Source: a virus
Taxonomy: Duplodnaviria; Heunggongvirae; Uroviricota; Caudoviricetes
Direction: 5' to 3' (one strand)
DNA length: 5,025 bases
IMG/VR virus record: IMGVR_UViG_2681813313_000011
Of the stretch, positions 4,826-5,025 are shown in pieces. Numbering within the stretch: position 1 is the stretch's first letter; each line of letters begins with the position of its first letter. The notes beneath the pieces are model-generated. The model saw only the letters and a list, made by a program, of their open reading frames with translations. It was not told the origin of the DNA and ran no database searches. Both the position numbers and the translations under genes were made by a program.

Positions 4826-5000
4826 TCAGGCACCGTGACATTTTTTGTACTTTATTCCCGAGCCACAGGGGCATTGTTCATTCCGGCCGACCGCACCAAA
4901 AACTTCAGTTAATTTAGTCTTTGTGAACCGCCCCGGGTTTCCTGGAGAGTGTTTTATCTGTGAACTCAGGCTGCCAGATCATCGTTTCCGATGGAAGCAT
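4826..5000 (-). other. Frame-split small ORF carrying a SecA-type SEC-C zinc-binding motif (possible pseudogene or sequencing frameshift)
   Basis: Frame ending at 4826 encodes ...[33 protein letters not shown], close to the SecA C-terminal motif GRNDPCPCGSGKKYKQCHG, but has no in-frame start. An ATG at 5000 in the adjacent frame encodes [28 protein letters not shown] and overlaps it. A 1-nt change in the AAACCCGGGG region (forward 4929-4936) would fuse them into a protein of about 57 aa. Confidence 0.3.
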
Positions 5001-5025
5001 AATAAGCTTTTTCTGCTTCTGCCGG

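Follow-up and report, generated by a model that had tools for sequence, protein, structure and literature searches.

IS629 is the most active insertion sequence in EHEC-type Escherichia coli. A complete IS629/IS1203 element has a programmed −1 frameshift (orfAB) and is flanked by a target-site duplication of 3–4 bp. The zinc tail of SecA binds SecB or the ribosome. In the Qin prophage of E. coli K-12, the slot directly upstream of hokD is occupied by relB–relE, with DUF968 (ydfU) and the antiterminator gene Q downstream. The window analysed here, a stretch of 5,025 nt, belongs to the late-early region of a Qin-like lambdoid prophage and carries a SecA-like zinc-finger motif upstream of hokD. 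Almost certainly, this motif belongs to what remains of a prophage gene for a 932-residue protein: IS629 has cut the gene and left its final 31 codons, a case of ordinary gene decay.

The motif lies on the minus strand, with its residues encoded by 4888..4829 and a TGA stop codon at 4828..4826. It matches the Pfam SEC-C family (PF02810) with a score of 44.3 bits and an E value of 1.5e-11, against a cut-off of 20.4, over profile positions 1–18 of 19, and the CPC...CH ligands are present. The Cys-x-Cys-x8-Cys-His spacing and the flanking GRN...GSG.KYKKCHG are the same as in the SecA zinc domain (PDB entries 1sx0 and 1ozb), and the tail of the intact parent protein is matched by these zinc-binding peptides in a phmmer search (E value of 3.5e-5 to a 22-residue SecA peptide). 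In contrast to SecA, the motif sits on a nuclease–STAND protein in the parent and is an orphan fragment in the window. The reading frame of the motif opens at 5023 and contains no ATG, GTG or TTG past the preceding stop codon, and the ORF listing of the window reports no ORF in this frame. The initial annotation had described a SecA-like motif in a frame without a start codon, and this description is correct. A missing start codon is also compatible with a SEC-C-like motif that arose by chance in the non-coding DNA ahead of hok, as had been raised as a possibility; however, the Pfam score is more than twice the cut-off, the DNA matches the end of an annotated gene without a single difference, and a Cys-x-Cys...Cys-His tail ends 108 of the 120 best-scoring homologues. 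Coincidence on this scale is vanishingly improbable, and the motif is, as judged from its sequence, real and far beyond chance.

A second frame, initiated by an ATG at 5000, overlaps that of the motif. It comprises a 28-aa ORF (5000..4914, minus strand) in the adjacent frame, and both frames would be joined into a product of 57 aa if the CCCCGGG run (4931..4937) were one base shorter, as the initial annotation had calculated. The arithmetic of a stand-alone SEC-C gene of about 57 codons, split by a 1-nt indel or a sequencing error in a C/G homopolymer, fits in so far as the ATG and the SEC-C frame are one base apart with the CCCCGGG run between them. However, IS629 supplies both the homopolymer and the first 23 codons of the fused frame (5000..4924), with 100% identity to other copies, and the SEC-C part matches the tail of the 932-aa protein gene at 100% identity. 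The run lies inside the terminal inverted repeat of IS629 (TGAACCGCCCCGGG), where it is conserved and identical in other copies, and it is therefore not a sequencing error. A tblastn search with the fused 57-aa product, the check that had been proposed, was carried out against 50,697 phage records and retrieved right ends of IS629 only, with unrelated continuations; the first 23 residues align with the ends of IS629 at every occurrence of the element. The 28-aa ORF, which has no Pfam match, begins out of frame within the transposase gene, crosses the inverted repeat and ends 10 nt into the gene stump. It is a spurious, chimeric product of the junction, and the one-base fusion is coincidental. 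A decayed or mis-sequenced small SEC-C protein is refuted by this evidence, and the proper annotation of the feature is that of a gene fragment, not of a small zinc-finger ORF.

The insertion sequence is represented by its last 102 nt (5025..4924), all of which are identical to a copy annotated as an IS3-family transposase; the element ends with ...GGTTCA. The frame from 5025 encodes the C-terminus of the transposase OrfB (19 residues; 4966..5025, minus strand), which is cut by the window edge and shares 100% identity with the 3′ end of the IS3-family/IS1203 transposase gene in NZ_CP027445.1. The next 42 nt (4924..4965, minus strand) form the right terminal region with the right inverted repeat, which contains the CCCCGGG run and reads TGAACCGCCCCGGGTTTCCTGGAGAGTG... 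on the plus strand from 4924. The reverse complement of the right end, TGAACCGCCCCGGGTTTCCTGGAGAG..., mirrors the left end of the NZ_CP027445.1 element, TGAACCGCCCCGGGAATCCTGGAGAC.... The inverted repeat, the terminal CA of the 5′-TG...CA-3′ pattern and the OrfB C-terminus place the piece in IS629/IS1203. RefSeq labels such copies as ‘IS3-like element IS1203 family transposase’, and the VT1-Sakai record AP000400.1 labels the identical sequence as ‘inverted repeat from right end of IS629’. Whereas a complete element has a left end and a target-site duplication, the piece in the window is confined to the right end; it is oriented in the same way as the truncated gene, toward the stump.

The boundary of the mobile element is located at 4924/4923, between the ATG frame and the SEC-C frame. 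When the minus-strand segment 5025..4600 was compared by megablast with 5,426 complete E. coli genomes, it never matched in one piece and was split exactly at this position. The portion 5025..4924 matched 3′ ends of IS3-family/IS1203 transposase genes, and 4923..4600 matched, with 100% identity, the end of a gene for a ‘SEC-C metal-binding domain-containing protein’ together with the region upstream of hokD. Base-by-base alignment shows a clean switch: the window follows the IS copy of NZ_CP027445.1 through ...CCCGGGGCGGTTCA, which ends at 4924, and from CAAAGACTAAATT..., which starts at 4923, it follows the E. coli AR_0089 locus with the intact gene. The exact junction occurs in none of the 5,426 complete E. 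coli genomes, and exact-pattern scans detected neither the 40-nt nor the 22-nt junction pattern in genome contigs, nor the 22-nt pattern in metagenome contigs. The junction rests on this one assembly.

The stump itself (4826..4923, minus strand; 98 nt) is composed of 2 nt of the Ala901 codon, codons 902–932 and the TGA stop codon, and is 100% identical to positions 3001..3098 of the AR_0089 locus, the end of the gene encoding WP_023352600.1 (932 aa). The suggestion in the initial annotation that the motif might be a remnant of a larger gene is thereby borne out. The 932-aa proteins WP_023352600.1 and WP_000264572.1 are encoded in E. coli lambdoid prophages whose loci share with the window the last 98 nt of the gene and the downstream hokD, DUF968, RusA and Q genes; in the window, by contrast, codons 902–932 are kept and IS629 replaces the rest. 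The nuclease, ATPase and repeats that characterize the family are absent from the window, and its sequence is a fragment of a family member, not a member.

The arrangement is almost certainly accounted for as follows. The normal place of the 932-codon cargo gene is downstream of the replication module and ahead of hokD. In the window, IS629/IS1203 has the same orientation as the gene and ends at 4924, abutting the stump at 4923; the gene end has thereby lost its promoter, its start codon and 97% of the coding sequence, and codons 902–932 and the stop codon persist as a non-functional 3′ stump. Most likely, then, the stump is an inert remnant of an IS629 insertion, possibly with an adjacent deletion. 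In a promoter scan, the stretch from the IS end to the stump was free of promoter-like sites; the only such site (4752..4724, minus strand) is downstream of the stump and serves hok. We infer that the stump is not expressed. The finding in the window is in this respect routine, an IS629-made pseudogene stump.

Expression of the stump as a zinc-finger micro-peptide, by way of transcripts reading out of IS629 and a non-canonical start codon, would be favoured by the orientation of the IS toward the stump and by the open frame, which reaches 50 codons back into the IS. However, this frame lacks ATG, GTG and TTG, the interval up to the stump is devoid of promoter-like sites in the scan, and the junction is unique to this genome, which implies no conservation; we consider such a peptide very improbable. 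Translational coupling of the stump with the transposase was also considered and rejected, as OrfB stops at 4966 and is in a different frame.

The intact parent gene (2,799 bp) occupies positions 300..3098 of the E. coli AR_0089 locus and ends 278 bp before hokD. The gene also directly precedes hokD in a 99.9%-identical prophage of strain Z1323HEC0108. The gene is rare in E. coli, being found in 16 of the 5,426 complete genomes, with at least 99.5% identity and a position just upstream of hokD in all cases. The family comprises 935 homologues at E ≤ 1e-5, from Serratia, Providencia, Klebsiella, Yersinia, Vibrio, Shewanella, Pseudomonas and other genera. Among the best 120 of these 935 homologues, lengths range from 731 to 961 aa; 75 are exactly 932 aa long, a length that recurs across Enterobacterales, Vibrio, Shewanella and Pseudomonas.

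The parent protein contains three Pfam domains: Cap4_nuclease (residues 25–77), AAA_22 (residues 239–364) and SEC-C (residues 914–931). An alignment of 37 family sequences shows an invariant Walker A motif, GxxGxGKT (G248–T255), a nuclease motif, E53/D55/D57/E59...Q70-x-K72, and SEC-C residues that are at least 90% conserved. The AlphaFold2 model of the protein has a pLDDT of 80.6, and its best fold match in the PDB is the STAND-TPR protein 6mfv (Foldseek E value of 5e-13), with further matches to plant NLR resistosomes, Cdc6, Hachiman HamA and Cap4. In the parent, an N-terminal Cap4/LmuA-like PD-(D/E)xK nuclease is thus joined to a STAND P-loop ATPase, which is followed by a helical sensor of the TPR type and, at the C-terminus, by a SecA-type zinc tail. 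In a UK blood isolate, a second IS3-family insertion, ISEc52, splits the parent gene near codon 200 (NZ_OZ546984.1 2501..6552), and RefSeq annotates both halves as separate proteins; two IS3-family elements have independently struck the gene among the 17 E. coli copies seen.

The order of parts in the parent (nuclease, P-loop STAND NTPase, winged-helix/helical domain and TPR-like sensor) is that of Avs proteins and of 6mfv, and the Pfam, AlphaFold2 and Foldseek results together recover the effector, STAND NTPase and repeat sensor of the Avs architecture. Relatives of the parent likewise reside in a defence-island context: homologues in Vibrio cholerae adjoin Gabija-like OLD/UvrD, AbiH and PIN genes, and those in Pseudomonas adjoin AbiH. 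Unlike Avs proteins, the parent has an additional SEC-C tail, and its sequence matches no Avs model (Avs1–5) of PADLOC or NCBIfam at E ≤ 0.01. It corresponds to no named defence system in PADLOC 2.0, NCBIfam or PHROGs, whose profiles gave, in addition to the SEC-C tail, just a weak N-terminal signal of the LmuA/DUF4297/HamA type, including a weak N-terminal match to LmuA in the PADLOC scan. Because its relatives are found next to Gabija-like and AbiH genes, and given its architecture, the parent is probably an Avs-like single-protein anti-phage sensor-nuclease. Literature searches on SEC-C in combination with anti-phage defence and STAND/Cap4 returned no account of the parent family; they retrieved only the lactococcal SEC-C protein ‘Rugutis’, whose architecture is unrelated. 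Widespread in Gammaproteobacteria, constant in length and associated with defence islands, the 932-aa family represents an uncharacterised candidate Avs-like system. The wider interest, namely this nuclease–STAND–SEC-C family and the variable slot that it occupies, lies outside the window.

Whether IS629 entered the gene by simple insertion or mediated a deletion bears on what is located beyond the window edge, and the two are equally plausible. A deletion is plausible because an IS629-type element is found beside hokD without the early region in NZ_CP027445.1 (integrase–IS–hokD). In the case of a simple insertion at the tail boundary, a 901-codon body beyond the window might still make a working tail-less protein, with the stump inert; such a locus would be trimmed rather than dead. 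The far flank would then read ...CATAAAGCAGCAA, that is, codons 1–901 followed by CAA or a 4-bp duplication, and the predicted tail-less protein would end with ...AHKAA-MNRPGNPGD*, as obtained by reading the left end of the NZ_CP027445.1 IS629 in frame under the assumption of a 3-bp CAA duplication. Such a product has natural counterparts, as five family members among the best 120 of 935 homologues stop at 901–904 aa, just short of the SEC-C tail. Target duplications of 3–4 bp, as are typical of simple insertions, were present at 21 of the 47 IS629 sites studied, but matching duplications were missing at the other 26 (PMC3271280). Moreover, the visible sequence ends at 5025, 102 nt into the IS, the loss of the early region in related prophages argues for deletion, and the conservation of the tail across the family (at least 90%) suggests that it is important. 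A working tail-less protein is, on balance, unlikely.

Since some natural members stop at 901–904 aa, the break by IS629 at codon 901 removes exactly the linker and the zinc finger. That the element is a simple insertion at this codon, with a complete but ‘de-tailed’ nuclease–STAND protein beyond the window, is a doubtful proposition, and we give it little weight. If it were true, the de-tailed protein would offer a ready comparison for the role of a SecA-type zinc tail on an Avs-like sensor; the roles to be compared would include, for example, tethering to SecB, to ribosomes or to the membrane.

The window is 99.8–99.9% identical to prophages with the intact gene from two Korean human isolates. 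On the minus strand, the IS629 end and the stump are followed by hokD/sok, an ORF without assigned function, DUF968/HNH, RusA and the antiterminator gene Q, and then by three tRNA genes, a broken TerB gene, DUF3927, an STnc100 match and the start of a SASA (nanS-p-like) esterase gene. In intact relatives, the 932-aa protein gene follows cI/cro-like, YdaT and DUF977 genes of the replication region. The slot directly upstream of hokD is the same as in K-12 Qin, with the same downstream DUF968 and Q genes, but the cargo differs: relB–relE in K-12, the 932-aa protein gene in the relatives, and IS629 with the stump in the window. The initial annotation had placed relBE upstream of hokD in Qin and had proposed different cargo here, and it was right on both counts. 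In Qin-like lambdoid prophages, the cargo of the slot that precedes hokD is thus interchangeable. A literature search for hokD as a defence hotspot found none.

The hokD/sok type I toxin–antitoxin locus downstream of the stump is intact (4393..4752, minus strand), as indicated by Rfam, Pfam, the promoter scan and annotated relatives. It consists of the promoter-like site described above, a hok/sok RNA region at 4717..4543 (Rfam sok, RF01794; 110 bits, with a gathering score of 59) and the hokD coding sequence at 4548..4393 (Pfam HOK_GEF; 79.9 bits), all on the minus strand, and accordingly combines a Hok/Gef toxin ORF with the sok antisense and hok leader. An overlap between the stump and hok regulation was considered and rejected: the limits of the Rfam region and of the promoter-like site are 4717 and 4752, respectively, approximately 75 nt downstream of the stop codon of the stump. 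In several STEC-type genomes, an IS629-type element is situated approximately 350 bp upstream of hokD, directly after the integrase gene and with the early region missing (NZ_CP027445.1 1794..3102), which suggests recurrent IS-associated deletions around the hok locus, with a breakpoint that differs from that of the window.

Between hokD and DUF968, a 135-aa ORF (3947..4354, minus strand) has no Pfam match, and relatives annotate just a 92-aa hypothetical protein there. The segment 1376..2533 (minus strand) contains the antiterminator gene Q followed by tRNA genes for Met/Ile (CAT), Arg (TCG) and Arg (TCT), with the nanS-p-like esterase gene further on. This Q–tRNA–esterase layout is as in Stx-converting phages, and no stx genes are present between the tRNA genes and the esterase gene. 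A match to the gammaproteobacterial small RNA STnc100 (433..605, minus strand; Rfam score of 100.8 bits, with a gathering score of 47) is flanked by the DUF3927 ORF (610..777) and the beginning of the SASA/nanS-p-like esterase gene (approximately 1..297). The TerB-family (tellurite-resistance-like) gene at approximately 776..1204 (minus strand) is broken by an internal stop codon into ORFs 774..920 and 1068..1235, and the same TerB pseudogene is annotated in a 99.9%-identical prophage.
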